Source: a virus (lineage: Duplodnaviria > Caudoviricetes). From it: DNA of 54,428 bases. The translations under genes were made by a program, and so were the position numbers. Each line of letters opens with the position of its first letter. Within the stretch, counting starts at the first letter, position 1. Of this stretch, positions 4,792 to 49,565 are shown piece after piece. The stretch lies in the IMG/VR virus record IMGVR_UViG_3300021964_000091, positions 1 through 54,428 of that record; one strand, given 5' to 3'. The notes under the pieces were generated by a model, which did not search any database, had not been told where the DNA came from, and saw only the letters and a list, made by a program, of their open reading frames with translations.

Positions 4792-5123
4792 TAGAAATTA
4801 TCCCGTACTCTAAAGTTCAACGTATCGTAAACTGTTTGAACACTACCGTTGAAATTAATTATAATTTCACCTTCATATTCACCGGGGTCTACGTCCAGAA
4901 CTCCTCCTGAAAAATCAAAATAAACCTTACCGTCAGAGCCATCAGTAAGTTTAGTTGTAGTAATCGTAGATAGAGTAGTTGTACCGCCTTTAAGTTTAAA
5001 CTTAATAGTAACAGTAGTTGTAGCTGCTGATAAATCTAATGCAGCATTTCCTACATCATCTCTAAGTGTTAGAGTGATTTGAGGTAATTCATCTCCTTGA
5101 ACTAATTTAATTGTATCAGCCAT
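4791..5123 (-). CDS. Virion protein, BppU N-terminal-like domain
   Basis: LVQGD...ITLTL...DL...GKVYF...GEYEGEI pattern; GAGG RBS. Confidence 0.55.
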   Translation of the reverse strand: MADTIKLVQGDELPQITLTLRDDVGNAALDLSAATTTVTIKFKLKGGTTTLSTITTTKLTDGSDGKVYFDFSGGVLDVDPGEYEGEIIINFNGSVQTVYDTLNFRVRDNF

Positions 5124-5131
5124 AATCTACC

Positions 5132-5785
5132 TCACGCAAACCTCTGCATCTGTACACGCATAGATGCTTTAGATGCACCGAGATTAGTTCTTGCTCTACG
5201 CTCTGCAGTCTTCATAACAAACTGCTTAGCATGATATGTAGCTAACTCTCTATCACTCCATGTTCTATCTGGTAATACCAGTAAGTGTTGTAGTGCTCCG
5301 TGCATAATTACATTTTCTAATTCATCAAGAACTGTTTTATCCATCTTAGTAGCAGTTCTCAACGGTTTAAGACACACTATCATTCTAACATCATAAGTTA
5401 CAGAATTATCTGGAACTGGTGCTAAAGAAAAATGATCGGGGTCTAATTGTGTTACATACCTAGGTTCCGCCCTCTCATCGACAGCTTGATTAGGCCATTT
5501 AGGATACATGTCATACATCTGCTCTAGCGTTACCGGATTAAGTTTATTCTCATTCACAGTAGCCGTTAACACAGCATGAACTTCTGCGTCGTTAGGAGTG
5601 TCATACTCATAATCATACGCACCGGGAACTAAACGAATCCTTGGTTGTTCATACCGCCAAGCAAGTGTTTTTTCACACGCTTCTATTGCCGCATCACGAA
5701 CATATTGTTCTACAACTGGTGTAGGACAACCGGGAACGCTAGGCGACAACCTAGTAACAATACTTAAAAAAGTTCTATCAGCCAT
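5132..5785 (-). CDS. Head-tail adaptor / tail tubular-like protein
   Basis: 217 aa after the capsid cluster; PGCP...VRDAAIEACE, LAPVPD and IMHGAL motifs of podovirus adaptors. Confidence 0.65.
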   Translation of the reverse strand: MADRTFLSIVTRLSPSVPGCPTPVVEQYVRDAAIEACEKTLAWRYEQPRIRLVPGAYDYEYDTPNDAEVHAVLTATVNENKLNPVTLEQMYDMYPKWPNQAVDERAEPRYVTQLDPDHFSLAPVPDNSVTYDVRMIVCLKPLRTATKMDKTVLDELENVIMHGALQHLLVLPDRTWSDRELATYHAKQFVMKTAERRARTNLGASKASMRVQMQRFA

Positions 5786-6429
5786 TAGACAACATCCTCC
5801 TCATCTAGCCCTGCTCGCTCAGTATCAGTTACTTCTCTACTTTGCGCAGCTACACCAAGAGACTGTGTAAACGACTGTTGGAATAACTGTGCACGTTTTG
5901 AATTAACGTGTTCGTTGTCAACAGACTCAGCCAAGAAAACCGTAGCATCAATCACAACAGGAAAATAAGCATCTGCTAATAGAGCTACAGTAGTAGTGCC
6001 ATCATAAGTTGGTGGCGTTTGTGCATATTCACCGACTAGCACTTGTCCGCTAGGGGCTTTCGGATAAATAAAAAATTTGTTTGCGTTTCTAACATGACGC
6101 ATATAGTTAACAGCAGCACCTGCAGCATCATTCATCCAAGAAGGGTATGCTTGATCTAGTGCTTCTCTGTTTGTTTCAATAATTCCGTTACCATTTTTAA
6201 CTGAGTAAATATCTATCAATCGAATAGAATCAGAAGGCATAGACTGAATAACAGAATCTGCAGTACAAGTGATGTCACCAATATAAGCAAAAAGATCAGG
6301 ACGCAACACAGCAATACGCTTAAGCGCTTGGTTTGCAAATCCTATCAGTACAGAATCAGAATAACGCTGTGGGCTATTTGTATCCTGTAGGATTCTTCTT
6401 ACCTCTGTAATGACATCATTTAATATCAT
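5785..6429 (-). CDS. Head-tail adaptor (gatekeeper, tail tubular A-like)
   Basis: VRRILQD...RYSD...RPD and FFIYPKAP motifs; coupled to both neighbours. Confidence 0.65.
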   Translation of the reverse strand: MILNDVITEVRRILQDTNSPQRYSDSVLIGFANQALKRIAVLRPDLFAYIGDITCTADSVIQSMPSDSIRLIDIYSVKNGNGIIETNREALDQAYPSWMNDAAGAAVNYMRHVRNANKFFIYPKAPSGQVLVGEYAQTPPTYDGTTTVALLADAYFPVVIDATVFLAESVDNEHVNSKRAQLFQQSFTQSLGVAAQSREVTDTERAGLDEEDVV

Positions 6430-6668
6430 TTAGGCAATCCTTTACTTGCTTCTTCCGCAAGGACTTCAGGTGTAGAGTCTCCATCTTCTGGAATCTCTGT
6501 TTCTAAATTTACTTTAGCCTTACGAGTGCTTTGTTTTTTTGTAATAAACTTTTCTGGGAACGCTTGTTCCTCAGTAATTTCTTCAGTGTTAGGATTCTCA
6601 GCTAGAATTTCATTCCAACCGTAAATCTCACCATCTTTTATATTTCGTAACCATCGGCCTGCCATCAT
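6426..6668 (-). CDS. Hypothetical protein
   Basis: Overlapping start/stop coupling with both neighbours. Confidence 0.65.
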   Translation of the reverse strand: MMAGRWLRNIKDGEIYGWNEILAENPNTEEITEEQAFPEKFITKKQSTRKAKVNLETEIPEDGDSTPEVLAEEASKGLPK

Positions 6669-6937
6669 GATCTCCTTAATGCTTTAACTCTTTTAGCTTC
6701 CCCTGCGGGTTGCCCCAAATTCTTTTTTTGTGCAATGCGACTTTTCTTTTCAGAAGCAGTAAGTTCGCTTGAAGTTTTAGGTGTGTCTTTAGATACTCGT
6801 TTAGATGGTCTACAATAAGGTGTACCTCGTTTTTCACCTTCACTACGACCGCAGGGTTTACCTGTACGAACATCTACCCACTTCTCCTTAAACCAGCGCT
6901 TAAGCTTTGCTCCTTCTTCAGTTTTGCGCACAGCCAT
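6665..6937 (-). CDS. Small basic protein (WFKEKWVDV...CGR...PYCRP family)
   Basis: Strongly Lys/Arg-rich; motif recalled from aquatic virus hypothetical proteins. Confidence 0.75.
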   Translation of the reverse strand: MAVRKTEEGAKLKRWFKEKWVDVRTGKPCGRSEGEKRGTPYCRPSKRVSKDTPKTSSELTASEKKSRIAQKKNLGQPAGEAKRVKALRRS

Positions 6938-6940
6938 ATC

Positions 6941-7108
6941 TTAACCTTTTTTAACACGTTTTGACGTCTTTGTATTCTTATTTTTAGAGTTTCCCCAATT
7001 AGACGCTCCAACTTTTCTACATTTAGCCAACGCACCTGACGCATAAGCAGAAGGCCAAACTTTATATGCTTTCTTTACTTTAAAATAACATGCGTCTTTA
7101 TTAGCCAT
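6941..7108 (-). CDS. Small basic protein, 55 aa (DACY.KVK..Y.VWPSAYASGAL.KCR)
   Basis: Below the track cutoff; translated by hand as MANKDACYFKVKKAYKVWPSAYASGALAKCRKVGASNWGNSKNKNTKTSKRVKKG; fills the gap between neighbours exactly. Confidence 0.8.
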   Translation of the reverse strand: MANKDACYFKVKKAYKVWPSAYASGALAKCRKVGASNWGNSKNKNTKTSKRVKKG

Positions 7109-7112
7109 AATA

Positions 7113-7355
7113 TCACCATTTCTTACACGACCAATATCGTGCTGTCATTTTTGACGGAGGGTTACTATCACAACCGTGTCTTGCTCGAAACGATTTACGA
7201 CGATTAGGCTGGTCTTTCTTAATAGTCATATTGGCATCACCAAACCGGATAATTTTTTCTTTTCCGTTTTGACATGCTTTCACAACAAACTTTTTACCGC
7301 CCTGTACTTGACGCTTTGGCTTATTACAAGCCATCTTTGATTTATCAATAGCCAC
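7113..7355 (-). CDS. Small basic protein (RFGD...RRKSFRARH.C...ARYWSCKKW family)
   Basis: GGAGG RBS; motif recalled from aquatic phage hypothetical proteins. Confidence 0.8.
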   Translation of the reverse strand: MAIDKSKMACNKPKRQVQGGKKFVVKACQNGKEKIIRFGDANMTIKKDQPNRRKSFRARHGCDSNPPSKMTARYWSCKKW

Positions 7356-7369
7356 CAGTCACCTCCTAT

Positions 7370-7393
7370 AAGAGAGGGGGGCCGAAGCCCCCC
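7370..7393 (-). terminator. Intrinsic terminator/attenuator after the capsid genes
   Basis: Minus strand GGGGGGC-TTCG-GCCCCCC (cUUCGg tetraloop) followed by TCTCTT. Confidence 0.7.
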
Positions 7394-7400
7394 AATCTAT

Positions 7401-7865
7401 TTAAGAGCAGTCAACCATTACAACTGTTAGAGACATAACCGCTGCGTCTGCTGCGTTAACAGTAACAACATCGATTGTATCTTCTGCAGTGTAATACTTA
7501 CCATCTGCGTAGCCAGTAGGAGTACCTGCTGACGGAGCAAGAGAATAAGCTGCTGCCGCATTAGCGTTAACACCGTCAAGGTAGCCATCAGGGTCAGTGC
7601 CGTCACCGACATCAACCGTAAGAGTGCCACCTTCTGCAGTAGTAACATTTAGAACTACCGAAGTAACCAGCGTGTTAGCTGGAACTTTGATAACTTCTAG
7701 AACATCACCTGCAGTTAGTGCTGTTAGACCTGCTGCTGAACGTGCAGTAGTAATTGCTGCAAAGTTCAAGTCTACTGTAATTGCGGATACCTTGTTGATA
7801 CCTGCTGCAACGTGAGCTGCACCAGTTCCAAGTTGATAACCTTTTCCATCGTTATATGTAGCCAT
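7401..7865 (-). CDS. Capsid decoration / minor capsid protein
   Basis: Directly after the major capsid gene; AAGGAGG RBS; Ala/Gly/Thr-rich; VGDGTDPDGY motif. Confidence 0.65.
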   Translation of the reverse strand: MATYNDGKGYQLGTGAAHVAAGINKVSAITVDLNFAAITTARSAAGLTALTAGDVLEVIKVPANTLVTSVVLNVTTAEGGTLTVDVGDGTDPDGYLDGVNANAAAAYSLAPSAGTPTGYADGKYYTAEDTIDVVTVNAADAAVMSLTVVMVDCS

Positions 7866-32936: not shown

Positions 32937-33372
32937 AGCCGCCACTGCAATGATATGTATGGCTCACGCCATATACTTTGAAGCTAGGTCTGAGTCTACT
33001 GCGGCACAACTTGCTGTGGCACATGTAATCTTTAATAGGGTTGAAGACCCTAGGTTTCCTAACACTGTGTGTGAGGTTGTAACCGAAGGATTACGCCACG
33101 GTTCAGGTGTAATGAAAAGACATAAGTGCCAGTTCAGTTTCTATTGCGACGGAAAACCCGAACAAATTTCCGAACAAATAGCATACAGAAAAGCAGAGTT
33201 AATAGCATACTCAGCCTTAGATACTTACGCACAGTATGATATTACTGATGGAGCCACACATTATCATGCTGATTATGTGGCACCTGCATGGGCTACCGCA
33301 GATAGATTTACTAAGACTACTTGTATAGATAAACATTGTTTCTATAGATTAGAAACTACTGCAAATCGCTAG
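32926..33372 (+). CDS. SleB-like cell wall hydrolase (Hydrolase_2)
   Basis: AIYFEAR, V..VI.NRV...FP.TVC.VV, CQFS, GATHYHA.YV.P.W and H.FY motifs. Confidence 0.9.
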   Translation: MILEAATAMICMAHAIYFEARSESTAAQLAVAHVIFNRVEDPRFPNTVCEVVTEGLRHGSGVMKRHKCQFSFYCDGKPEQISEQIAYRKAELIAYSALDTYAQYDITDGATHYHADYVAPAWATADRFTKTTCIDKHCFYRLETTANR

Positions 33373-36300
33373 GGTCTATACCATATAGTTGCATTAGATC
33401 ATCGATCTCCTGCCTGATATTCTTAGGCGCAAACTTCTTATATCGTAGGATAGTTGGGTTCTTAGCCGCATTGTATGAACGGTTAGCAGACCTAATGAAT
33501 CCTTTGAACTCAAACTCTGTACCTTTATGGTATCGGTTATGCTCGTTCACATCCTGAATAATTCTGTTCATTTCTGCTACATCATTATTTAATTTAGCTT
33601 TTACATATTGCTGAGTGTAAGCCATCTTAAGTGATTTCACATAAGCATCAGTATGTTTTCCTATCCTAACCACATCATTCTGCAGCGTAGCGATTGCAGG
33701 ATAGAAGCCCATCATACGAGCAATAGCAGTCGTTAATGGTACTTCGTTAGAGATTACATTACCTTTGGAATTGGTAATCCTTCCATCGTTTAGATATGTC
33801 CAACCATCAGCCATACCTCGGACTGCTGATACAGGAGAATCACGCAGGATATCTACAAAGTTTGTAGTGTCATCCTTAAGTCCTAATACTTCAGCACCAT
33901 ACTTAGCTAGTTGACCACCTGTAGCAAACATACCTTGGATACCGTTATATACAGGGCCAAGGAAGTTCTCAGCTTCACGCCATGGGTCTGCACCTGCTTT
34001 AAGTGCGCCTGATAGTGGGATCAAATCACCAAAACCTAGTCGAGTAGATATGGTTGCACCAGTGAATCGGTCTATGAAACCACGCATTAATACTTGTGAT
34101 GACCCCGGATACACACTGTCAAAGAACGTGGCAAGTTCTTTCTCTATGCTTGCCATCTTAATACCGAACATCTGAGCAAGAGTATCAACCAAATCCATTA
34201 GGTCATCTGCAAATGGTAGTCCTTTCAATCCTGATGCAAACAGTAGCATACCTAGGAATATTGCACGTTCCTTAGTAGCCATTCCTCTCATCAACTGAAC
34301 GCTGATAATAACGAATTGTTTATACATAAATACATATTGGAGTACGTTACCACGAGCCATCTCTGGTCGGTTATACATAGCGTATTCACCTTGAGATGTG
34401 TTCACAGCTTTACGTCCAAATTCTGACGCACGTTCCTGTGCTTCAGCTTGTGTAGCACCTGCCGCTAGTTGTCTTTCTCTTTCAAGTCTATAAGCCGCCA
34501 TGAATGTAGTTCTACGGTTCATCTGCTCTGTGTAAGAGAACATAGACATCCATGCTTTAATAGCAGATGCAGTCTTATTACTATTCACACCACCCCTAGC
34601 AGTACCTACTAGTGCATTGAATTGTGCCGCTTGTAGTACGCCTTCTGCTGTAGCATCTCGTAAGGCTATGGCTTCGTCTTCTGATAGACCATGTTTCTGC
34701 TGTAGTTCTGTGTTGTTAGCAACCTCATTAACATAACTATAATTAGCAAGATTCTTATTCCACATATTACCTGATGATCTCATCATGGCTGCTGCCGATA
34801 AAGTCATACCAAATCCACCACCATAACCACGTTTAGGGTTATAGGTACTTAGATAAGGGATAGAGTGGGTTACCATTGAGATGGCGTTAATAGCTGCTGT
34901 AGCTACTGATCCACCCAACTGGAATAAGACAGCAAACAATTTGAAACGAGAACCGACTTCACCTGACAACATATCTTCTGTTGACTGATCGATGTTAGCC
35001 GCGTCAGAGTACCAAGCAAGAAGTCGTTTAGCTTCTTCTCTATAGTTTTCACCTCGGCCTTCAGTCTGTGCTTTTTTAGACTGTCTGGTTCCATCACCAT
35101 TTGCTTTACCATATAGATTAACAGTTTTACTTCTACCTACATCAGCACTGTATTGGTACATAGCTGCATAAGCATCGTATTCTTGGCGAGCAATCTTAAT
35201 TCTTTCAGGGTTACCCTGTCTTTCTGCTCTGAGCATAGCATCTTCAAGACGCTTAAGTTTCTCAGGGTTACCTCTCCACATGCTGTTATCAAGCATGATT
35301 CGATTTAGTTTGTGGCGATAAAAAGTCTTACCGGCAATATGACCTTGAGTCTCAAGATGCTCGGATACACTACGAACTACGTCAGTATCCCATCCTGCTA
35401 CGCCTGAACGTTGTAGGCTACGTCTTGCTCGTTCACCCTGTTTAGTCAAGGCAACAACAATACGCTCACGTTCTTGTGGAGTAATATTAACACTCAATCT
35501 CTGCAATACATCTACGAACTCACTTAGGTTTACTGTGTGAGTCATAGGTTGTGACTGTCTAGCTGTACCAAACTCAGCTTCAAATGTTACTTTAACTTCG
35601 TTTCCGTCGTTATCTAGAACAGTAAACTGTTTACCACCGAATGATTCATCTAAAGCACGTTGAATTTCTCTAGCATCTGCACGACTATTTACTTGGTAGT
35701 AAGGCATAGAACTCTTGTATGCCTCGTCCATATTAACTGCTTTGCCATTAGCCATAGCTTTAACCATGACCTGATACTTACCACGTCTAGTGAATGGTAC
35801 ATATGCACCCATGATAGTACGCTTAGCTAGGAACTCAGCATTAGCATTCTTAACATCTAACAGGTAGATATTCTGGATTGCATTAGTAATATTGTAGGCT
35901 TGGTTCTCACTTAATCCCAACGCATTAAGTCTTTCTAGACCATCAATAATATCTTGGAACTCATCACCTTGGAACTGCTCTGTATTATCAGTGCCTGCTT
36001 TCCAGTCATTAAGTTTGTTTTGATTCCACATTGCACGGTTGATAGCCGCAATAAAGGTCTTAGCTTTCTCAATAGATGCTTCTTTATACTTAAGACCTGC
36101 GCCTTCCTGAACCGCACCTTCTTTATAAAGACGTGTGTATTCATCAATAACTCTACGCAGAGTCTGTATTTCTACAGTAGTAGGAGCGTTACCAGCAGAC
36201 CCAACAACATTTTTAAATCCTTCCAGTGCTTCGTTCTTCTGATCTAATGCAGCACCAAGGTTGGCTTCAAGCACATCAAGTGCAGCTTGGTTTACCGCAG

Positions 36301-39300
36301 CCCTTTGTTCTTGGTAGATACGCCACACATTATCAGTAATAGCAAACGCAGGTTTGTAGACAGAAGGTTGTGTGTTCTCTTGTCCTTCAACAATATCTAG
36401 TACTACTTCAATACCGTTAGTAAATTCATCTCTAGTTACTTCTCCTGCCTGCCTGATTCTTTCAAAAGCATTAGGATCAATAACAATATTTCCGTTAGCG
36501 TCAGCTACAGCAAGGTTAGGCATATCACGAATCATTTGTTCCGTGGTTGCTTTACCTTTAAACAATGCTGCATAAGCTAGTAGTTCACCAGCTTGTTGTA
36601 GTTCTTCAGTAGTAGGGCCTCCACCAAATCCAAACCATTCAGGTGTGTGAGAGAAGGCAGTAAGTTTTTCATACTCAGCATGTAGTCGTTTAACCCTAGC
36701 TGACTGTTGTTGGAAAATCTTAAATACTTCTGAAAGACCTTCACTACGCAAAGCCATATTATCTAGAGTCTGTACTTTCTCTAAGGCTTCACCTAACCAG
36801 TTTGCTAGGTCTCTAGTATTAGTTACATCTTTAGCTCGTTTAGCTAGTTCAGATACACCTGTAAAACTACCATACTGACCTGCTTTCTTATTCAAACCAA
36901 ACTGGCTGAACAATGTAGAAGCTAGGTCAGCACGGTCATCTTCAAGGGAGAAGCGTCCATACATGCTGTCCTGTGTTAGTCTTTCTAAGTTTTTACTTAG
37001 CTGTCGACCATTGACAAAGAATCCGCCACCTGAGCGTAAGTTTCTACGAGATTGACTAATCAGGTACCGGGACATGTCATCACCGAACGTAACCCCAAAC
37101 TTGTTGAGGAAGTTCTTAACAGCAGCCCAAAATCTGGCTACGAAATGTACATCCATATAGGCCGCAGCATCAGCCATTGCTTCTTCAATAGCCTCGTGCA
37201 TATCCATACCTGCTTCCATCTTACGATCAGCAACAGCACGGATATGGCCTTCAGTTCTATAAATATCTCTGAGGATAGCATTGAGCCTTCTGTCAGGCAT
37301 GAATGCTCTAAATCCAAAGTGACCTAGTGTTTCGTGGGCTACAACAAACTGAACCTGTTGCTCAGTTTTAGCGTAGTCAGCAAAGATAATAATCTGGTCA
37401 CCAACTGAGAAACCTACAGCCGGTGTAGTTTCAAAGTCAGGTCGGCTACGCATAGCCCTGTTAAATAACTCAGGGTTAGTTTGTCTAAGTTCTGCCACAT
37501 TCTGAACAACAGTGACAGTTGGTTTAATCTTAAGACCTTTAAGAACCTTGTTAACAATTAATTTAATCTTACCTTTAGGCACAGGGTTTTGGATTACAGA
37601 ACCATCTTCTGCTCTGTAGAAGTTACCATCTTCATCATCAAACGCACCAAACATTTCATCGTCACTCTTACTACGAGTATCCAATGTCATTTCTTCGGCT
37701 TGTCTTAATGCTTCTAGTTGTTCTCTTTCACGCTCAGCAGCTTTAAGTCTTGCTGCTTTCATTTGAGCCTGACGTTCTTTCAACTGTTCTTGGGTATATT
37801 CCTTAGTAGTAGGTACAAGCCTACCATCACCTGACCCTACAAGTTTAAGTTCACCGTTCTCATTAAAGTATTCTTTAAGCTTAGGCCCTCTACCCATACG
37901 ATATTCAGGGTCTGCTTTAGCAAACAACTGGTTAAGCCTAATAATTTCTTTAGAATTTCTACGCTTAATTTGGTTAATTGCTTGATCTCTAATCTGTAGA
38001 TCAATCTGTTTCTCAAGCTCTTGACTTGCAGCAAACTGCACCTGCTCTGAAGTTTCCTCAATAACAGCAGGTTCTTGAACTTGTTCTTGTTCTACCTGAG
38101 CGATTGGTTCTGCTACAACCTCTGCTTGTTTAGCTTTATACCACTTAGGCATTGCTCTCATTGGAGCTTTAATAGCATCTAATAGATTACGCTGAGCACC
38201 AAAGGTTACCCATGCTTTATCCTTACCACGATAAGTTCCTGTAAGATTGTCGTTTAGATTCGCGCCAGCAACAAAGGCTTCATCAATAGCTTTCCATTGT
38301 TTCTCACTAAATTGAGTGTTGTTTATATAAGCTAATGCTCTGTCTCTAATACTAAGACCACCACCTGCGGTTTTCTTACCGAGGTTAGAATCAGTATTAA
38401 ACAGTGCATAATCAAGAATAGTTTCAGCTGCGTATGCAAAAGTGGTTGCATCAGTGGCAGTATCAAAAAAGGTTACCGCTTCCTCTAGTTCTTGTAGAGG
38501 AGTTAGTTCCATATCAGCACGAGCTTTGTCATAAATTTCTTTAGTCTGCTCGTAAGTAATAGAACCACTATTTACTAGCTGTTCAAACTCTTGCCTCTGT
38601 GCAGCAGGGATATCATCAAGTGGGATATCTGTAACACCCATGTCTTCCCATGCTTCATACGGAGAATCGTATGCAGTTACACTAGATACGGCGGCTTCTT
38701 CTTTGACAGCGGGTCTGCTATCCTGTTGCCTTTCTTGTTGTGCTTGATCTGTTGGTTGCGGAGTTTGTTCTTGTTTAGCTCTTTGCTCTGCAACTTGTTC
38801 CGTGATCTGTTCTTGGCTAGCAATCTCGCTCGCTTTCGTTTTTCTGAGTCGCTGAGCTTTCCTACCCGTTGTGGTAGTTGTCTGTTCTCCGGTGTCTCTG
38901 ACTCGAATTGGTTCGCCAGCTTGGGGTTGTTCGCGTACATCCACTTCCGCTGGGCTTCGCTCTTGAACGGCATCTTCACCCCTCCTTAATGTTGTAGCCG
39001 CAGGAGCTACAGGAGCTGCAGGCTCGTCAAAAGGTAGTGTCAGTTGACCAGCGGCTTCTAGTTCAGCGGCAGTTGGTTGTTGTGGTTCTGCAGCGACAGG
39101 TTGTGGCTGTCTCTGTAACCTTCTCAATCCGTATGGAACAGCAAACCCCGGCAGACTTGGCTGCACAGGTTCTCTAGCTGCTGATACCATTGGCATCTTA
39201 AGCTGAGCATTTTCCTCAGCTAATCTTTCATTCTCTGCAATAATCTGTTCGATCCTTGCAGTTTCTAATTCTTTAATCTGTTGTTCTTGACGCTGACGTA

Positions 39301-41374
39301 AAGCTTCATCGAACTGACGTTGACGTTCAGCACGAGTTCTTTCAGCTTCTAATTCTTGTTTAACAATTTCAGCTTCCTGTATAGCCTGCTGAGTTTCAAC
39401 CTTCTGTTGTTCTTCACGAGCTAATGCAGCCTGAAGCATCTGCTGACCCATAGCAGTTTGTTGTGTTTCTGGTTGCTGCGCTGCAACCTTCGTAGCTGCA
39501 ATCGTTGGGTCTTCTAATGGTAGCTGTTGCTGACCAGTAACTTGGTCTTCTAATACCTGATTTGACGTAGGTACAGCCTGTCCTGCAGGATCAACTACAA
39601 CTGTTTGGTTATTTAAAGCCTGTTCTATTGTGTTATTTGTGCCACCCTGTTGCTCATTTGCAACAGTAGGTGCCTGTGTTGTGACAGGTTGTTGTGGTGT
39701 AACTGTCGGTGTTGCTGCCGGGGCCTGATTTTGTCCCATTTCTTCAGCAGAAAACAACTCCATTTGAGTTCCACTAGGGGCTGGGAGGGCACCTGCAACA
39801 GAGGGAGGAGCTGGCAATGCGCCTGCAACCGTGCCACCTAGTGGATTCGGATTAGGATTCTCTGGATCAACTGGGGTAGTACTAGAAGATGGTTCAGGAT
39901 TCTGTTCAATCTGTAGTAGATTGGTTGCTTCACCCTTCTTAAGGGTATTAGCTACTGAACCTATTGGGCCACCTACTGCAGCACCTGCCGCAAAAGCATT
40001 AATAAGTCTGTTAATTACTTGTTTATCATTTAAATCAAACTGGTCTGTACCTGCAAGTAAGATAGTTTCTTGAGCAGCTTCTGTTACACCTTCAAGAGTA
40101 GCGCCTACTGCGAAACCTTTACCTGCTCGCTTAGCGATTCCACCCCTAGCCATAGCAGCTGGAGATAGTACAGAATTAGGTACACCAAAGATTTTACCAG
40201 CTAAGAAAAATTCTGATAGAGATTCTAAAGCAGCATATGGAATAGCACCTAATGCGGCTGTATATCGGTCACCTACACCTGTATCTCTTACTTCACCATA
40301 GATATCACCAAGGCCAATACCATAAGAACTAACGCCTGATCCTATTGCTGCACCGCCTACTATAGCTTGGTTTCTACCAACTCTATTAGCTTTTTGTGCA
40401 CCTGCTAGGATTGCGTCATCAATCTGTGATTTGATACCAAAAGTATTTCGTTTAAGTGCTGCTTGTCCTGCAGGGTTGACTACAAAAATCTTAGGATTCT
40501 TAAGCTGTGCTACACCAGTAAGACCTGCAACTTCACGAAGAAGTTTTCTCTCACCATTACTAAGAGCTTCACCTTTCATATACTTTTTAGCAGCTACAAG
40601 AACTGCTCGTTTGAAAGACTCTTTACCCATAGTAGTTAGGATTGCACCACCTACAGCACCGAATGGGGTACCAGTTGTAACAGCACCAACCCCTGCACCT
40701 ACTAGTGCAGATGCAACAGACTCAATAAGCATTGGCCCTTGCTGTGCAAGGTTAGCTACAAACCAATCGAGCGCACCATGAGATTCAGAATCACCAAATT
40801 CTATATTAGTAAATTCACGTTGGAATGGTTGGTTATAGTACAGTTCTTTAACTGCTTCATTAACCCAAGCCTGACCTGTTTCTTCTGCACCAAAAAACTG
40901 AGCAGCTCTACCACCAAGAAGTTTTAGATTACTACCACCAATTTCAAAGTTACGTTTCATCAGCGTACCCCAATCAGGGTTTCTGATTCCGCCTATATAC
41001 TCATCATAAACTTGTGGTTCTACAACCTGCCAGTTATAACCAGCGGGTGCATCGGCTCTTGGCTGTTGGATATAAGGTACTGAATCCATTGCTGACTGTG
41101 CATCATCAGCATCAAACATAGCACCATTCACAAACATCTTGTTAGCATTAGGATCATAAAGAACCTGAGGCCCAGACGTTTTAGGCTTAAGCATCTCAGG
41201 CATTTCAAACTGAGATGATTTAATAATGGCTTCACCTAATGCGGCTGTATCCGCCATAGATGTATTAAGGTTACCTACGCCAATATCTGGTTGGGGATCG
41301 TAAGGATTACCTACTGGATTTATATCCATGGCATTTAGTGGAATGCTGCCGAATGAGAGTCCAGCTTTTGCCAT
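33356..41374 (-). CDS. Giant internal virion / DNA ejection protein (2672 aa)
   Basis: Last gene of the late arm; Gly/Ala-rich hydrophobic N-terminal region, Q/E/P linker, HETLGHFG zincin-like motif, helical C-terminal region. Confidence 0.8.
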   Translation of the reverse strand: MAKAGLSFGSIPLNAMDINPVGNPYDPQPDIGVGNLNTSMADTAALGEAIIKSSQFEMPEMLKPKTSGPQVLYDPNANKMFVNGAMFDADDAQSAMDSVPYIQQPRADAPAGYNWQVVEPQVYDEYIGGIRNPDWGTLMKRNFEIGGSNLKLLGGRAAQFFGAEETGQAWVNEAVKELYYNQPFQREFTNIEFGDSESHGALDWFVANLAQQGPMLIESVASALVGAGVGAVTTGTPFGAVGGAILTTMGKESFKRAVLVAAKKYMKGEALSNGERKLLREVAGLTGVAQLKNPKIFVVNPAGQAALKRNTFGIKSQIDDAILAGAQKANRVGRNQAIVGGAAIGSGVSSYGIGLGDIYGEVRDTGVGDRYTAALGAIPYAALESLSEFFLAGKIFGVPNSVLSPAAMARGGIAKRAGKGFAVGATLEGVTEAAQETILLAGTDQFDLNDKQVINRLINAFAAGAAVGGPIGSVANTLKKGEATNLLQIEQNPEPSSSTTPVDPENPNPNPLGGTVAGALPAPPSVAGALPAPSGTQMELFSAEEMGQNQAPAATPTVTPQQPVTTQAPTVANEQQGGTNNTIEQALNNQTVVVDPAGQAVPTSNQVLEDQVTGQQQLPLEDPTIAATKVAAQQPETQQTAMGQQMLQAALAREEQQKVETQQAIQEAEIVKQELEAERTRAERQRQFDEALRQRQEQQIKELETARIEQIIAENERLAEENAQLKMPMVSAAREPVQPSLPGFAVPYGLRRLQRQPQPVAAEPQQPTAAELEAAGQLTLPFDEPAAPVAPAATTLRRGEDAVQERSPAEVDVREQPQAGEPIRVRDTGEQTTTTTGRKAQRLRKTKASEIASQEQITEQVAEQRAKQEQTPQPTDQAQQERQQDSRPAVKEEAAVSSVTAYDSPYEAWEDMGVTDIPLDDIPAAQRQEFEQLVNSGSITYEQTKEIYDKARADMELTPLQELEEAVTFFDTATDATTFAYAAETILDYALFNTDSNLGKKTAGGGLSIRDRALAYINNTQFSEKQWKAIDEAFVAGANLNDNLTGTYRGKDKAWVTFGAQRNLLDAIKAPMRAMPKWYKAKQAEVVAEPIAQVEQEQVQEPAVIEETSEQVQFAASQELEKQIDLQIRDQAINQIKRRNSKEIIRLNQLFAKADPEYRMGRGPKLKEYFNENGELKLVGSGDGRLVPTTKEYTQEQLKERQAQMKAARLKAAEREREQLEALRQAEEMTLDTRSKSDDEMFGAFDDEDGNFYRAEDGSVIQNPVPKGKIKLIVNKVLKGLKIKPTVTVVQNVAELRQTNPELFNRAMRSRPDFETTPAVGFSVGDQIIIFADYAKTEQQVQFVVAHETLGHFGFRAFMPDRRLNAILRDIYRTEGHIRAVADRKMEAGMDMHEAIEEAMADAAAYMDVHFVARFWAAVKNFLNKFGVTFGDDMSRYLISQSRRNLRSGGGFFVNGRQLSKNLERLTQDSMYGRFSLEDDRADLASTLFSQFGLNKKAGQYGSFTGVSELAKRAKDVTNTRDLANWLGEALEKVQTLDNMALRSEGLSEVFKIFQQQSARVKRLHAEYEKLTAFSHTPEWFGFGGGPTTEELQQAGELLAYAALFKGKATTEQMIRDMPNLAVADANGNIVIDPNAFERIRQAGEVTRDEFTNGIEVVLDIVEGQENTQPSVYKPAFAITDNVWRIYQEQRAAVNQAALDVLEANLGAALDQKNEALEGFKNVVGSAGNAPTTVEIQTLRRVIDEYTRLYKEGAVQEGAGLKYKEASIEKAKTFIAAINRAMWNQNKLNDWKAGTDNTEQFQGDEFQDIIDGLERLNALGLSENQAYNITNAIQNIYLLDVKNANAEFLAKRTIMGAYVPFTRRGKYQVMVKAMANGKAVNMDEAYKSSMPYYQVNSRADAREIQRALDESFGGKQFTVLDNDGNEVKVTFEAEFGTARQSQPMTHTVNLSEFVDVLQRLSVNITPQERERIVVALTKQGERARRSLQRSGVAGWDTDVVRSVSEHLETQGHIAGKTFYRHKLNRIMLDNSMWRGNPEKLKRLEDAMLRAERQGNPERIKIARQEYDAYAAMYQYSADVGRSKTVNLYGKANGDGTRQSKKAQTEGRGENYREEAKRLLAWYSDAANIDQSTEDMLSGEVGSRFKLFAVLFQLGGSVATAAINAISMVTHSIPYLSTYNPKRGYGGGFGMTLSAAAMMRSSGNMWNKNLANYSYVNEVANNTELQQKHGLSEDEAIALRDATAEGVLQAAQFNALVGTARGGVNSNKTASAIKAWMSMFSYTEQMNRRTTFMAAYRLERERQLAAGATQAEAQERASEFGRKAVNTSQGEYAMYNRPEMARGNVLQYVFMYKQFVIISVQLMRGMATKERAIFLGMLLFASGLKGLPFADDLMDLVDTLAQMFGIKMASIEKELATFFDSVYPGSSQVLMRGFIDRFTGATISTRLGFGDLIPLSGALKAGADPWREAENFLGPVYNGIQGMFATGGQLAKYGAEVLGLKDDTTNFVDILRDSPVSAVRGMADGWTYLNDGRITNSKGNVISNEVPLTTAIARMMGFYPAIATLQNDVVRIGKHTDAYVKSLKMAYTQQYVKAKLNNDVAEMNRIIQDVNEHNRYHKGTEFEFKGFIRSANRSYNAAKNPTILRYKKFAPKNIRQEIDDLMQLYGIDPSDLQ
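38677..38973 (-). CDS. Nested out-of-frame small basic protein, 98 aa (MPFKSEAQRKWMYAN...)
   Basis: TAAGGAGG (38981-38988) 7 nt upstream of ATG 38973; N-terminus matches a small phage protein motif I recall; 27 Lys/Arg in 98 aa. Confidence 0.65.
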   Translation of the reverse strand: MPFKSEAQRKWMYANNPKLANQFESETPENRQLPQRVGKLSDSEKRKRARLLAKNRSRNKLQSKELNKNKLRNQQIKHNKKGNRIADPLSKKKPPYLV

Positions 41375-41375
41375 G

Positions 41376-44141
41376 TTATTTTGCTCCGCTATTTATAACA
41401 CTCTGTACATTTGATGTTAAATATGGGTTGCCTGATGAAGCTGACCCAGAGATTAAACTTATTCCATCAGCAAGAGATATTTTCTTAGTTCCCGGTGCAT
41501 AGTACTTATCACCATTAGGTTTAGTATGTTCCATCATTGGGTCAAATAAGTAAACCTCAGAACCTATTTGCACAATACCTTTACCAGAACCATCACCAAT
41601 AGCTTTAAACTCACCTTTCATCATCTTAATCTGCTCTAGTAACGCATTAGCTTTGGATGTTAGTTCTTTATCGACTTTGAGTTTGATAAGGTCTGCATTA
41701 ATTTTTTGTTGTTCTTTCGTCATATCTAGTTGTGCATCAAAAATCTTCATAGATTTCTCAGCAGCAACTTGGTTAATCTGAGTCTTGTATGATGAATCGA
41801 ACTGAAGCTGAGCTAAGTGAGATATCTCTCGCATGCTCATACCTTCTTGTACCACAGTACCATCCATCTGCAGATTAAACTTACCATCAGAACGTGGGAC
41901 AATTCGTACATCCCTGCCTGAATACATAGACCAAACCATAGATAGACGGTTGGTGTTATTACCGTACCTTAAATCATTAAGACCCTGCATACCTTGCAGA
42001 TAAATCATACCCTGATCTATCTTAGTTACAGTATCCCTAGCAGTTACAAGGCTAGTTAGCATACCTTCTGCTGCTTCTTTATACTTAAGGAAGTTATCTA
42101 TATCACCTGAAATTCTGTAGATTTCTGCAATTCGTTTATATTCCTGTGATTTCTTCTGAGCAATTTGAAAAATCTGAACTGCTTCAGTTCTAGTTTTCTT
42201 AGCTTGCTCCATATCATAAGTAACTTTTGATGGATTCTGTATATAAATCGCAGGGGTATCAATACTTTTGTCTTTGGGTGTATCACCAGAACCTAAGTTA
42301 CCGCTGCCTAGATCAACACCAACTTGGTCACCAGTGGTGACTTTAGTATCTTTACCTGAATCAACTGTTTGTAGAGAACTAACATTGTCAGTAGCAACAG
42401 CTGTGTTATTTGCATTATTAGACTTAGCTTCTGTTTCTACTTTAGTTGTAACTTGATCGCCTACACCAGCGCTTAGCTTAACTTTAAGCTGGTTATATTC
42501 TGTAATAAGTTTTGAATTTTCAGCAGCCGAAATATTTGGATCAGCAAGTAACTTACCAATCTCATTCATACGATCCATCGCCGCTTTTCTGTCATCACCT
42601 GTAATAGCAGGTAATTTCAAACCAGCTTGGGCTTCTGTGTCTTTTGTAGTAGAATCAGGAAGAATGGTTACATTCTCTGGTGTATATGTAGAACTGCTAG
42701 CTGTAGCACCAAACGCAGTTGGAAACTGATCCAACATACCGTTGTAGATTCTAATTACTGCAGAGTTATAATCATTATTTGTAAGCGACCCATCATTAGC
42801 TACAGAAGGAGTACCTCGTTGAAGGGTTCCTTCCATACCACCTTGGTAACCTGCAGCAAGCAAGTTCTTAGGTACACCAATATATTCACCATACTTCAGA
42901 TATAAGATACCTGCAGCTATCTGGTGTTGAGGATTAGTTGGGTCTAACGATGCAGCAAGCTGTTGAACCTGCTGTGAAATTCCATATTTTTTAATATTTG
43001 TTGGGTTTGTGTACCAACCTTTCATTTGTTGGAACGTAGAATCAGCGACCTGCATAGGCCCTTGAATGGTAACTTTACTACCATTCTTAAGTTCAAACTC
43101 TTTAGGTGCTGTATCAACCCTACCAAAATCTGATTCAATACCTAGAATTGCTAGAGAAAACGCAGTATCAAAACCAATTATCTTAGAGTAATTTAATACA
43201 TCTGTAGATGATGGTTGACTAAATCCTGTAGTTAAATCTTTAAGCCTAGCTGTAACAATAGTATCTGCTGTCTTAGCTGATTTCTTTGTAACAGCTCTAT
43301 CTTCTCTTAGAGGTGCTTCTTTAACAAAAGTTTTGTGGTAACCAATAGGGTCTAGTGCAGCCCATTGCAGTTGATTAGGGTTTTGTTGAAAATATTTTTT
43401 AGCATCATCAGAATCATACCAGTCAAATGCTTCTTTACTTGCTTTACGCTGTTCTACTTCATCAGGATCATCAAAGAAATAACCATACATACGCCCAGCA
43501 GGAGAAGATGCAAGCATATCTCCATAACCTGTAGCAATACGATCTCTGATTTTCATCATGATGGCATTGAAGTCACTATTAGCAAACATCTTATCAAGAC
43601 TTTGCATAAACTGAGATGACTCAGTATCAACCTGAGTAATATCAGGAGTGCCACTCATACCGACTTTTGACATATCAAAGTCAGCTTCAGGGTTATAATC
43701 AGGGATAGTCAGGTGACTAGGTTGTACGTTAGTCCCTTCTAAATAATTTTCTTTACCTGTTTTAGTTTCAGCACCTTCAATGGTTTTAGTACCATCTTGG
43801 TTCTCAGTAATTTTAGGCCCAACTGCATCAGGTACAACTGGTTTAGTGCCGTCCCCTTCTGTACTAGGTACAACAATTTTCTCTGGCCCTTTAGGTTTTT
43901 CTTCAGGTGGAGGAGGTGGAATATAAAGTTGATCCGAACCAAATCCACTAGAATCTAGATTAGGCTGATTGCGCAAGGCAATATCAGGCAGCTGCACTCC
44001 GGGTGCATAGTCCTGCATATTAATACGGGTTTGGTTTTTACGTTGTAAATCCTGAAGATCACTCTCCAGTCTTGCACCACGATTAAAAGCGTCAGAGTCT
44101 TGACCTAACGCAGTTCCTACAAACCCTCGCAATCCTGCCAT
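41376..44141 (-). CDS. Internal virion protein with lytic transglycosylase (SLT) domain
   Basis: AILGIESDF (catalytic ES), GPMQV, AGILYLK and AAGYQGG motifs. Confidence 0.8.
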   Translation of the reverse strand: MAGLRGFVGTALGQDSDAFNRGARLESDLQDLQRKNQTRINMQDYAPGVQLPDIALRNQPNLDSSGFGSDQLYIPPPPPEEKPKGPEKIVVPSTEGDGTKPVVPDAVGPKITENQDGTKTIEGAETKTGKENYLEGTNVQPSHLTIPDYNPEADFDMSKVGMSGTPDITQVDTESSQFMQSLDKMFANSDFNAIMMKIRDRIATGYGDMLASSPAGRMYGYFFDDPDEVEQRKASKEAFDWYDSDDAKKYFQQNPNQLQWAALDPIGYHKTFVKEAPLREDRAVTKKSAKTADTIVTARLKDLTTGFSQPSSTDVLNYSKIIGFDTAFSLAILGIESDFGRVDTAPKEFELKNGSKVTIQGPMQVADSTFQQMKGWYTNPTNIKKYGISQQVQQLAASLDPTNPQHQIAAGILYLKYGEYIGVPKNLLAAGYQGGMEGTLQRGTPSVANDGSLTNNDYNSAVIRIYNGMLDQFPTAFGATASSSTYTPENVTILPDSTTKDTEAQAGLKLPAITGDDRKAAMDRMNEIGKLLADPNISAAENSKLITEYNQLKVKLSAGVGDQVTTKVETEAKSNNANNTAVATDNVSSLQTVDSGKDTKVTTGDQVGVDLGSGNLGSGDTPKDKSIDTPAIYIQNPSKVTYDMEQAKKTRTEAVQIFQIAQKKSQEYKRIAEIYRISGDIDNFLKYKEAAEGMLTSLVTARDTVTKIDQGMIYLQGMQGLNDLRYGNNTNRLSMVWSMYSGRDVRIVPRSDGKFNLQMDGTVVQEGMSMREISHLAQLQFDSSYKTQINQVAAEKSMKIFDAQLDMTKEQQKINADLIKLKVDKELTSKANALLEQIKMMKGEFKAIGDGSGKGIVQIGSEVYLFDPMMEHTKPNGDKYYAPGTKKISLADGISLISGSASSGNPYLTSNVQSVINSGAK

Positions 44142-46842: not shown

Positions 46843-47193
46843 CTACTCTCCTTTTATTTGTTTAATAAGTGCATTTAACACCGCCCTAGTATACGCTAGG
46901 TCATTTGCTAAAGTTTGCACATCTGTAATAAGTTTACCATAATCTTCAAGACCTGCTACCTCTTGACTACTAATAGTAAACCCAGCGCCTTTTGCACTTA
47001 CTTGTTTCATGTCTTGTTCAGACATTTGCTTAATGGTAACCTGACCTTGAGTAACTGCTTTACTCTGAAGATCAGACTCACCACGAAGTCCTGTTAACAG
47101 CTCCACATTCTCTTTCACAGAGCTAATCAAAATACTTTGCCAGTCAGTTATACCTCCTTGTGGTACTGCTGGTATTGCTGTAAATCTAGCCAT
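46843..47193 (-). CDS. Hypothetical tail-associated protein
   Basis: TAATG coupling with the nozzle gene; C-terminal coiled coil. Confidence 0.7.
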   Translation of the reverse strand: MARFTAIPAVPQGGITDWQSILISSVKENVELLTGLRGESDLQSKAVTQGQVTIKQMSEQDMKQVSAKGAGFTISSQEVAGLEDYGKLITDVQTLANDLAYTRAVLNALIKQIKGE

Positions 47194-49565
47194 TACACCG
47201 CCCTCAATCCATAAGGCGTTTCACCAAAGTGAATAGCTCTAATTCTAGACGAACCAGATACACCTACTTCGAATGTATCCGATCTGTAGCCACTAGGCAA
47301 TCTAAATATATCACTAGAGCTTACAGTTGCTTGAAATACCAAGGTTTTATCTGCCCATAGTTTAAATGTAACAGGTAACACACCTGTCAAGTCTTTTAGA
47401 GTACGAGTCATACCATCCCCGTTTATAGGAAAAGCATTAAGAGTTCCAATATTATTTACAGCTACGCCTGCATCAGTGTAGTCAGTAGGCCCATTGAGTG
47501 GAGCTAATTGGATTGATTTAGCCCATATAGCGTTATTATAAGCAGGGACACTGTTATTATAAGCTTGGATATTTGCAGCTTCAGCGTCAGGAGTTTGGAA
47601 GTCTGCGATAACTCTAGCAGCACCTAAGTTAATATAGTCCTTAGTTACTAGTGTTTTAGATTTCCATTCAAGCGGAGAAAGAACTTGGTTTACATTATCC
47701 CATTCATAGATATCTCCATTACTACCTGCGACATAATACATGATTCCTGTTTCTGTATCGGTATAAGCAGCAGTAAATTGATATTCAATACTTACAAAAA
47801 ACCCACCTACTTTATCATCACGTTCAAAAATAAATGAACTAGAACTATGTGACCCAAAATATTTACCATTATAAAAATGACCTATAAGAGTAGACGGGTC
47901 TAAAGTATCATTCCATGTATCCCAATCGTGGACAAACTTAGTAATAAGGTCAATACCTGTAGATGGTGAGAATACAGCAAGACCACCGTGAGTAGCCCAT
48001 ACAATACCATAACCCATATTAACAACTGATCGTTTAGATAAACATGGATACAGTGTATCAATACGAGATGACACCATAGTTGCTGGGTCGTTACCAGAAA
48101 CTTGGTATGGATAATCTTTTGTTAGAACCGTAACATAACCTGCGTTTGGCTGAATAGCTACAATCTCAGACTCAAACGTCATTCTATATATTTCAGGCCA
48201 AGCATGTGGTTTATCAGGAAATGAAAAACATAACTGGTTACTAGTAAATCCTACAAGAATATTATTATGTGCTGCTTTAAGACCCTGCATATTAGAAGGT
48301 GGTGCATCATAATTTTCTGATGGAACAATCGTTGTTAGACCTGATACAAGAAAGTCATCAGTAAAATTATAACTGCCATCACCCCAGTATCTAGCCGAGC
48401 TGGTAGCAAGTTCAGAAACATCGTGATACATAGTGCCAGAAGTGGCAGCTGTAGTACCTACATCAGTAGCAGTTTGAGCATACTTAATAGTATAGTCGTC
48501 AACTACTTCTGTAACTACGCCGCCTGTAATATCAAAAGAAGAATCTGAACAACCACTTATTTTAAATCGGTCATCTACAATAAAATTATGATGATCATCA
48601 AACTTAACAGTAGACACGTTACTTGTTCTAGAAACTTCAGTTACAGTTCTAGGAAACCATAAAGTTCCTAACAAGAAGTAATCGGTAACAGAAGCTGATA
48701 CAACACTTCGATAAAGTCTAATACCTCTAATAAAATTCTGTCCTGATGGCGGAGCAGTAGGTAAACTACTTACAGTAGAACCTTGTCCTTCTTTAATATA
48801 AGACTCGTTAGAAGGTAAACTTGGTATGGATTCTTCGTTCCATGGTGTTACCCATGTATATATGTAAGTTCTAATTTGTGTATTACCCGCAAGATCAGCT
48901 CGACCTGTAGTGTTTGCAGTTTTAGATACTGCGTCACCGGGGCTAAAGTATTGGAAGTCAGTAGAGTTAATAACTGTAATCTCTACGTTAGTAGCATTAA
49001 AAGACTTAGCTTCATCAGAAGTACCAAAGTCACGAACAGTTACAACGTTACCTGAACGAAGGTTATGTGCAGAACCACCATAAAACGTAGCTGTGTTACC
49101 TGAGTCACGTTCATAATGCGTAGAACTAACCACACTAAAAGATACTGCTGTGTTAACAGGCTCAGTATCAGGTAGTGGTAAACCTAGTTCATAATAACCA
49201 TTAGTAACAGGATAAGGCTCACTACCATCTGTTGCTAACTCATAGTTAGATACTTTAGGTACACCATCGCCTGTATAATAAAACCGTTGCTCATCATCTC
49301 CTGCGTCACTAGCAGTAGCGATGTCGACTTCAGTAAGCCACGATAACCAGACATTAGCATTAGTTGATGGATTTTTAAGCGCATGTAAAGTCTTAATAGT
49401 TCCTGTACGCTCTGTGCTATCAACTATCACAGGTGTACGGTAAGGCAACAGATCACCTGAATACAACTTTACATTAAAAGCTGTTTGTGCTGCGCCATCA
49501 GGTAACAACTCAGAAGAAATCTTCGGAGCTTCACCTAGGAACTTAATTAACTTTACTGATGCCAT
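47193..49565 (-). CDS. Tail nozzle / tail tubular protein B-like
   Basis: 790 aa, beta-rich; LCFS...PHAWP, C.SKRS and WKSK motifs; two inserted HN(L/F)...V beta domains. Confidence 0.75.
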   Translation of the reverse strand: MASVKLIKFLGEAPKISSELLPDGAAQTAFNVKLYSGDLLPYRTPVIVDSTERTGTIKTLHALKNPSTNANVWLSWLTEVDIATASDAGDDEQRFYYTGDGVPKVSNYELATDGSEPYPVTNGYYELGLPLPDTEPVNTAVSFSVVSSTHYERDSGNTATFYGGSAHNLRSGNVVTVRDFGTSDEAKSFNATNVEITVINSTDFQYFSPGDAVSKTANTTGRADLAGNTQIRTYIYTWVTPWNEESIPSLPSNESYIKEGQGSTVSSLPTAPPSGQNFIRGIRLYRSVVSASVTDYFLLGTLWFPRTVTEVSRTSNVSTVKFDDHHNFIVDDRFKISGCSDSSFDITGGVVTEVVDDYTIKYAQTATDVGTTAATSGTMYHDVSELATSSARYWGDGSYNFTDDFLVSGLTTIVPSENYDAPPSNMQGLKAAHNNILVGFTSNQLCFSFPDKPHAWPEIYRMTFESEIVAIQPNAGYVTVLTKDYPYQVSGNDPATMVSSRIDTLYPCLSKRSVVNMGYGIVWATHGGLAVFSPSTGIDLITKFVHDWDTWNDTLDPSTLIGHFYNGKYFGSHSSSSFIFERDDKVGGFFVSIEYQFTAAYTDTETGIMYYVAGSNGDIYEWDNVNQVLSPLEWKSKTLVTKDYINLGAARVIADFQTPDAEAANIQAYNNSVPAYNNAIWAKSIQLAPLNGPTDYTDAGVAVNNIGTLNAFPINGDGMTRTLKDLTGVLPVTFKLWADKTLVFQATVSSSDIFRLPSGYRSDTFEVGVSGSSRIRAIHFGETPYGLRAV

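Follow-up and report, generated by a model that had tools for sequence, protein, structure and literature searches.

The 54,428-base pair (bp) stretch analysed here, the window, is the complete viral contig IMGVR_UViG_3300021964_000091 (CheckV 100%) of an uncultured tailed phage, and its genes include a DNA polymerase, a primase-helicase, a portal/adaptor and an internal-virion-protein gene. Its minus strand carries a giant gene (33356..41374), an open reading frame (ORF) of 2672 amino acids (aa) for a putative internal virion or ejection protein. Wholly inside this ORF, on the same strand but in its +1 frame, lies a second ORF at 38677..38973(-), with 98 codons followed by a stop codon at 38679-38677. 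It is situated at about 0.30-0.34 of the length of the host gene, and the layout is that of an embedded gene. Based on the comparison of sequences described below, we regard it as highly likely that this nested ORF is a real protein-coding gene.

A first-pass annotation of the window had proposed a hidden gene preceded by a Shine-Dalgarno (SD) sequence 7 nucleotides (nt) ahead of an ATG in the +1 frame of the 2672-aa ORF. Direct reading of the minus strand confirmed this arrangement: the giant codons TTA AGG AGG GGT GAA GAT GCC GTT CAA hold TAAGGAGG-N7-ATG in the +1 frame. The SD sequence TAAGGAGG occupies 38981..38988(-), its TAA is a stop in the nested frame, and the ATG at 38971..38973(-) spans the giant codons GAT GCC. 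AGGAGG-type sites stand at the same spacing before most genes of this phage. The in-frame TAA was annotated as three codons upstream of the ATG but is located five codons upstream (TAA GGA GGG GTG AAG ATG), and a listing of ORFs therefore gives 100 aa, starting from a GTG two codons 5' of the ATG. The ATG is taken as the start because homologues begin at MPF. The product has 98 residues, 27 Lys/Arg, 8 Asp/Glu (these three counts are exactly as annotated), no Cys, a pI of 11.0 and a mass of 11 kDa. Codons 1-37 (38863..38973(-)) encode a conserved N-terminal module, MPFKSEAQRKWMYANNPKLANQFESETPENRQLPQRV, which is supported by two alignments (A1 and A2) and a profile search, and codons 38-98 (38680..38862(-)) encode a basic tail, predicted as a long helix over residues 42-82 with a floppy end.

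Scans of IMG/VR and of metagenomes returned 54 loci, 51 of which were examined; some are near-duplicates (L005/L006/L029-32, L051/54/55 and L014-L020). Thirteen loci with an embedded copy were scored, namely the window (WIN), L005, L007, L008, L009, L028, L032, L034, L046, L050, L051, L054 and L055. In all 13, both frames are open, the frame offset is constant and a start codon is present. The long frame extends over 994 to more than 2200 codons, often ended by the edge of the locus, and the nested ORF comprises 46-98 codons; the nested frame is also recorded as open over 81-92 codons across the relatives. ATG is found at the scored position in 12 loci, and in L050 an ATG one codon upstream gives MAPFKS. 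The SD sequence reads TAAGGAGG in L005, TAAGGAGAGG in L007, GAGGAGG in L008, AGGAGG in L009 and GAAGGAGG in L028, and is retained in six distinct relatives of the window's lineage. The giant residues that encode it differ (LRRGED in the window, AEEAAN in L008, AQEEQN in L009 and another sequence in L028), and L008, L009 and L028 retain it even though their upstream giant-frame residues are unrelated to those of the window. A low-GC lineage (L046, L051, L054 and L055; loci of 35-36% G+C) lacks an SD sequence; its leader is 65% A and 85% A+T over 20 nt, in loci with 38-39% A. Thus, a start codon together with either an SD sequence or an A-rich leader is kept in all 13 embedded loci. The first-pass annotation had named loss of the start signals or of the open frame as grounds for rejecting the gene; neither was seen, and relatives with unrelated giant sequence upstream still have the ATG, a signal for ribosome binding and a +1 frame free of stops.

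The giant genes that carry the nested ORF fall into three lineages that can barely be aligned to one another. When the window giant was compared with the L046 giant by BLAST, the sole alignment was the 44-aa dual-coded segment. In the giant-frame alignment, L008 and L009 are unlike the window upstream, and the likeness starts at (D/N)AVQERS, which corresponds to the ATG. The shifted motif, which the annotation had likened to motifs in other large virion proteins, does occur elsewhere: the giant genes of L008 and L009 carry it as NAVQERSTAQVDVREQPQAG, and those of L051/54/55 as DAIQERS. From these alignments, nesting appears to recur in at least three giant-gene lineages. Members of the window's lineage are 49-72% identical, conservation of the tail is lineage-specific (SDSEKRR.AR, NQQIKHNK.GNRI), and the indels among relatives within the overlap are multiples of three. 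Metagenome contigs of other phages match only positions ~38913-38977 and diverge at the ATG. Such contigs (runs X2, X3, X5 and X20; estuary, marine and salt-marsh) are 85% or more identical over the first 40-60 nt of the nested gene, and one short-match contig, from a metatranscriptome library, has its own SD-like AAGGGAGGG ahead of the ATG. The comparison of metagenome-contig variants with the window covers the best-supported 40 of 195 differences. A DNA-level search with window positions 38000-39700 against 50,697 phage records gave no match.

The probability of two open frames was assessed by codon resampling in both directions. In one direction, synonymous codons were redrawn from the phage's own usage for an unchanged giant amino-acid sequence, which left the +1 frame open over 98 codons in 793 of 20000 resamplings; other stop-free +1 runs in the giant gene reach 84, 78 and 77 codons. 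The decisive test was the reverse one. With the 98-aa protein fixed and its codons resampled, the giant frame was open in 0 of 20000 resamplings and contained a mean of 15.4 stops. The same signature is visible in natural copies: over 38 codons, the giant-equivalent frame has no stop in 13/13 embedded copies, whereas 16/17 free or N-terminally fused copies have 1-10 stops. The codon for residue 3 is C-ending (TTC or TAC) in 13/13 embedded copies and TTT in 14/17 free copies; in the giant frame, a TTT with AAR after it would read as TAA. The G+C content of the first 111 nt of the nested gene is 0.55, compared with 0.42 for the genome. A stop-free giant frame combined with a selected nested frame implies that both are maintained, the small one for its sequence and the large one for continuity only.

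Selection was examined in each frame. In codons 1-37, ten pairs of five relatives show 90, 38 and 122 differences at nested-frame positions 1, 2 and 3, respectively, and the least variable position is the giant's wobble. Among WIN, L005 and L007, the overlap has a giant wobble rate per codon of 0.223 (274 pairs), and of 0.099 over its first 37 codons (111 pairs), as against 0.468 in the upstream flank (804 codon pairs) and 0.501 in the downstream flank (964). Giant positions 1 and 2 do not drop in the overlap. Host-frame wobble is thus suppressed in the overlap, in line with the reduced synonymous variation that the annotation had suggested looking for. An OLGenie-style count on seven sequences gave crude ratios of nonsynonymous to synonymous change (dN/dS) of 0.37 (codons 1-37) and 0.53 (codons 38-59) for the nested frame, against 1.77 and 0.77 for the giant frame over the same stretches; these are pairwise counts on related, non-independent sequences with raw distances and no tree, which weakens the case and leaves a direction rather than an estimate. 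By this approximate method, the nested frame is under purifying selection.

Structures were predicted for both readings of the same DNA with AlphaFold2 (AF2). The nested product, with 63 aligned sequences, obtained a mean predicted local distance difference test score (pLDDT) of 81.9, with block means of 90-97 over residues 1-60. The model contains helices at residues 6-15 and 17-26, an ordered extended stretch and a long helix at 42-82. The giant-frame reading of the nested DNA was taken from a 300-residue slice (38375-39274(-), seven relatives) and scored pLDDT 35-52. Values below 50 were obtained for slice residues 27-69, 73-154 and 170-198, and values of 81-91 from approximately residue 200, right after the nested stop, where a conserved AYDSPYEAWEDM domain starts. 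Because the alignment depth differed (63 versus seven sequences), the contrast is illustrative only. In these models, the nested gene lies within a disordered linker of the giant (38681..39196(-)) and ends at a domain boundary. The annotation's description of the host frame as a tolerant linker agrees with the pLDDT below 50 and with the giant-frame dN/dS values. The giant's reading of the overlap is a disordered linker whose only visible constraint is freedom from stops. A bZIP-like basic region at residues 44-62, considered on visual resemblance, was dropped, as Pfam gave no match and no heptad leucine pattern is present. The N-terminal proline exposed after removal of the methionine could conceivably be catalytic, as in the Fpg/Nei or tautomerase type, but this is an idea only.

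For expression, we propose that ribosomes would start independently at TAAGGAGG-N7-ATG on the same late mRNA and produce the 98-aa, pI 11 protein, and that other ribosomes would read through in frame 0 and produce the giant protein. The giant gene's ATG lies one base after the stop of an upstream 921-aa gene (41376-44141(-)) and its own SD sequence is weak, GGAG only. The giant may therefore be translated by coupling and at a low level, whereas the internal SD sequence is strong, so that the small protein may be made in excess. A search for an internal sigma-70 promoter near the nested start found none, and the RNA around the nested start is no more structured than shuffled sequences (z=+0.98). 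In an RNA library, a contig of 201 nt matches 38661-38861 apart from two differences; DNA carry-over could account for it. It does not prove transcription, and stretches that lack RNA cover are uninformative.

Two further points count against the nested ORF as a gene. Its length by itself is not significant, since a frame of this length was open in 4% of the resamplings, and its translation is inferred from conserved start signals and frame-specific selection. Both would suit an untranslated relic or chance ORF, either a small gene swallowed when two large genes fused or a linker open by luck, with the conservation belonging to the giant. The other +1 runs of 84, 78 and 77 codons fit this explanation as well. 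On the other hand, the giant frame is the unconstrained one (crude dN/dS 1.77 in codons 1-37), its wobble is the least variable position, and the start, a lineage-suited start signal and the open frame persist where the giants barely align. A relic would be expected to lose these at 49-72% identity, and we consider this explanation very unlikely. An assembly or gene-calling artefact, in which two genes and a small gene between them were joined by sequencing errors, has the lowest probability of all the alternatives considered. The window is a metagenome-assembled contig, and in L035, a near relative of L005 (match 3001-3257), both frames are cut, to 48 aa for the nested and 283 aa for the giant frame; L035 could be an assembly error or a broken copy. 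However, the continuous arrangement occurs in contigs of many separate samples and collections, three other DNA runs gave near-identical contigs over this region (X5 record 22 spans 38564-39011 with two differences and no indel), and the overlap indels among relatives preserve the frame.

If the nested ORF is translated, its start could instead feed a fusion, in which a -1 slip from the MPFKS frame into the giant frame would yield the module followed by 1770 aa. This would resemble the usual layout of the family, with the module N-terminal and cargo behind it (126 of 150 listed members; 45-1178 aa; L010 and L023). Nevertheless, a search limited to canonical heptamers found no in-frame X XXY YYZ in 9/10 embedded ORFs; the tenth, L034, has a heptamer that is not conserved. 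The ORFs stop anywhere between 46 and 98 codons, with +1-frame conservation of their tails up to the stop. Free copies of 34-60 aa indicate that the short form works alone, and the giant has no homology to the large proteins that bear the module. The fusion is therefore also very improbable, if anything slightly more so than a relic. The remaining alternative is that selection acts on a conserved nucleic-acid element, or on a giant-frame peptide motif DAVQERS...VDVREQ, and that the MPFKS reading is incidental. It draws on the ~40-60 nt at the 5' end that are alike at 85% or more between otherwise unlike contigs, and on the presence of the giant-frame motif in three lineages. Yet free copies retain the MPFKS protein with 1-10 stops in the giant-equivalent frame and with different codons (TTT versus TTC), substitutions pile up at nested-frame third positions, and the start region has neither RNA structure above that of shuffles (z=+0.98) nor a promoter-like site. 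We give this alternative only a slim chance, smaller than that of the fusion and above that of an artefact. The nested ORF as a translated gene is thus the reading that is followed below.

The stand-alone small protein mentioned by the first-pass annotation does exist. Unannotated ORFs of 34-40 aa with an MPF(K/V)S start were found by tblastn in Phage C75C1, Synechococcus phage S-CBS2 and Prochlorococcus phage P-RSP2, and phage 023Pt_psg01 has a 39-aa gene, annotated as hypothetical, between its portal and head-protein genes. Many uncultured-phage contigs contain free ORFs of 43-45 aa. Overall, free-standing copies measure 34-60 aa and start at the same residue as the nested gene's ATG; of the four deposited phage genomes examined, three carry the copy without annotation. 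A single-query search with the window protein in 5.8 billion proteins retrieved free members at E=5e-10 to 8e-5 (P0007 5e-10, P0154 5e-8, P0155 7e-8), which places the window protein in the family, and four called ORFs of the long nested type at E=1e-30 to 4e-16. With a cut-off of E≤0.001, a 37-position profile matched 2656 clusters, defined at 50% identity; 367 remained when the cut-off was set to E≤1e-10. Among the 150 members listed, the match begins at residues 1-3 in 126, in proteins of 45-1178 aa; of the other 24, some at least look like over-extended starts, e.g. P0001 and P0011. The window ORF likewise starts with M-P-F-K-S. Residues P2, S5, E6, A7, Q8, K10, W11, P17, A20, T27, P28, L33 and P34 are invariant in 11-12 sequences. 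The module is rare in cultured phages (3-4 of 50,697 records by tblastn), and the pattern SEAQ[RK]KWM occurred at two loci in 185,579 prokaryote genomes, both metagenome-assembled, although one strict pattern cannot show that prophages lack the module.

Short family members consist of the module and a Lys/Arg-rich tail. A Pfam scan of 54 longer members left most without a known domain. Phage_Mu_F and DUF5661 were found in two members each, two AAA-domain families in one member each, and an ADP-ribosyltransferase, a cupin, an S-adenosylmethionine (SAM) lyase, a NUDIX hydrolase, a DnaJ, a ParB-like nuclease and a peptidase M90 domain in one member each. P0123 is an Alt-like ADP-ribosyltransferase fused to the module, and L023 encodes a Mu-F head protein. 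The large module-bearing proteins have 1152 aa in L010 and about 1176-1197 aa in L023. Homology of the 1152-aa and 1177-aa module proteins to the giant's C-terminal part was tested and none was found. In L023/L024, positions 3938-7528 encode an unusual multi-domain head protein in which an MPFKS-like motif, a Peptidase_C39-like domain, Phage_Mu_F and HNH are combined; the motif reads NPFVSEAQRKWMY and is preceded by ~20 residues, so that it is not at residue 1.

The surroundings of the free copies are mostly structural. The gene follows the capsid gene in S-CBS2, precedes the head-closure gene in C75C1 and is near sheath or fibre genes in L015 and L012. Two micro-genes stand at the end of large virion-type genes. 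In L057, the micro-gene (3001-3132) comes ~90 nt after a phrog_32588-matching ORF (1-2913) that is 970 aa or longer, and opposite-strand genes come next. In L052, a micro-gene (3001-3171) directly follows a 968-aa ORF (92-2998) and is followed by opposite-strand genes. Over 827 residues, this 968-aa ORF shares 43% identity with the C-terminal part of the giant of L050, a giant with a nested copy. The arrangement in L052 is possibly a precursor state of nesting.

These comparisons also bear on the age of the two partners. Since the family is vast and the giant segment unconstrained, the linker probably arose when the large gene read through an older small gene; to judge from the distribution of homologues, the small gene is probably the older partner and the giant frame the newcomer. 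The first-pass annotation had spoken of an overprinted gene family in giant ejection genes. Its nested gene stands, but overprinting probably ran in the opposite direction to the one that it implied. Such a direction is unusual: a giant structural gene would have extended across an older small gene, its own frame being kept open by selection on synonymous codons.

The small protein would be a two-helix 37-residue module, widespread in uncultured phages, with a basic helical tail. Tentatively, we suggest that it could be a small, abundant, nucleic-acid-binding and virion-associated protein made together with the internal proteins, with the module as a head that anchors or targets it toward phage DNA or the capsid interior, and does the same for fused enzymes. 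This suggestion is based on the basic helical nature of the product, on the position of the gene in or beside internal-virion-protein genes and head/tail modules, and on the presence of the module in a Mu-F protein and in injected-type enzymes. The basic, DNA-binding internal virion protein put forward by the first-pass annotation is likewise a suggestion. The sequence conservation of the module across cyanophages, low-GC marine phages and sheath-bearing phages argues that its target is close to universal, whether DNA/RNA or a conserved host machine. The same conservation argues against a phage-specific protein partner and is one of several points that weaken the functional assignment, which is one by association. 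The P-RSP2 copy is located ~7 kb into the genome among unnamed small genes, with no evident structural module. For the module and the window protein, Pfam returned 0 families at E≤10 and NCBIfam none, a profile search of the Protein Data Bank (PDB) gave a best E of 0.39, and Foldseek against the PDB found nothing at E≤0.001. The sole library family that touches the module is phrog_1375 (PHROGs v4), which carries no name or functional annotation and matches weakly: its positions 17-64 (of 70) align with 7/10 members, at E=5e-5 to 4e-3, and the window protein itself scores E=0.46. Fold matches in BFVD were uncharacterised homologues only, and those in the ESM Atlas were unnamed viral clusters at 0.86, under the trust level.

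A broader and more doubtful possibility is that uncultured tailed phages use the MPFKS head generally, as a tag for loading or anchoring. Proteins that carry it at their N terminus would enter the capsid with the DNA and reach the host, and the micro-gene would have been captured repeatedly in disordered linkers of giant ejection genes, so that its product is made along with theirs. The carriers would be the ADP-ribosyltransferase, the SAM lyase, the NUDIX hydrolase, the Mu-F protein or the basic tail alone. If true, this would amount to a new and very widespread cargo-delivery signal, and hidden genes overprinted by the larger gene around them would form a class of their own.

Embedded genes are known from phage spanins, and the account of Kongari et al. 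(2018; PMC6139136) describes embedded, overlapped and separated layouts for spanin genes such as lambda Rz/Rz1 and T7 18.5/18.7. Compared with lambda Rz1 in Rz and T7 18.7 in 18.5, as presented there, the nested gene of the window is similarly a small +1 gene wholly inside a larger gene of the same strand, with its own start and missed by gene callers. The family also resembles these spanin genes in being found embedded, free beside a giant homologue (L052) and free elsewhere. The nested product is not an o-spanin, as it has no Cys and hence no lipobox, and is highly basic and helical. Unlike Rz1, its host is a gene for a 2672-aa virion protein rather than an inner-membrane spanin, it is nested in a disordered linker, and its module is also fused N-terminally to unrelated enzymes.

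Overprinted genes of small phages include phiX174 E in D and B in A, and MS2 L. The window shares with these the out-of-frame dual coding, with strong constraint on one frame and relaxation of the other. The nested genes of those small phages are young and lineage-restricted, whereas here the nested partner comes from a family of at least 2656 clusters; moreover, the genome is that of a 54-kb tailed phage, in which coding space is not scarce. N-terminal capsid-targeting sequences are known on packaged or injected phage proteins such as the T4 internal proteins (IPs) and Alt, and P1 DarB. The MPFKS module is comparable as a short N-terminal element on unrelated cargo (the Alt-like ADP-ribosyltransferase P0123 and the Mu-F protein of L023), and homologues of the giant host's C-terminal domain are annotated as DarB-like in some phages. 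It differs from the T4 and P1 sequences in its 37 residues, its predicted fold and its far greater conservation across unrelated phages; for the module, packaging is a proposal. Among the targeting signals that could be compared, none resembles it in sequence, and no protease site was found.

The architecture itself is thus already known, and what sets this case apart is the giant virion host gene, the probably ancient nested partner, the recurrence in at least three lineages and the free and fused forms of the module. Word searches of a subset of open-access text found no description of the MPFKS family or of the nested arrangement, although an earlier one may exist. As gene callers forbid long overlaps on the same strand, the giant genes with a nested copy are all annotated without it. 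The comparison brings to light an unnamed and very common N-terminal module on enzymes of the host-takeover type, which, if it were a virion-loading or DNA-anchoring signal, would be useful as a tool and for knowing what phages inject.

The host giant protein is related to known phage proteins through its C-terminal part. Residues 2144-2620 match phrog_11358 (E=4e-42), and tblastn matches in phage records are confined to residues ~2075-2660. The proteins matched are described as structural, PLxRFG domain, DarB-like or 'internal virion polymerase', from F116-like and other phages, and cultured relatives have only the C-terminal 500-600 residues in common with the giant. The internal virion protein gene of the window, at 47193-49565(-), matches phrog_511 (E=4e-108). 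The giant protein also contains an HExxH motif, VVAHETLGHFGF, at residues ~1335-1350, which is kept as VIAHEAMGHFGFRAF in the L009 relative. Pfam matched nothing for this HExxH-bearing protein; the motif may mark a site of the zinc-metallopeptidase type in an ejection protein. Finally, a 132-codon antisense ORF rich in Cys, Phe and Leu lies opposite the dual-coded stretch at 38591-38989(+), and is probably a by-product of the stop-poor composition forced by two overlapping sense frames.

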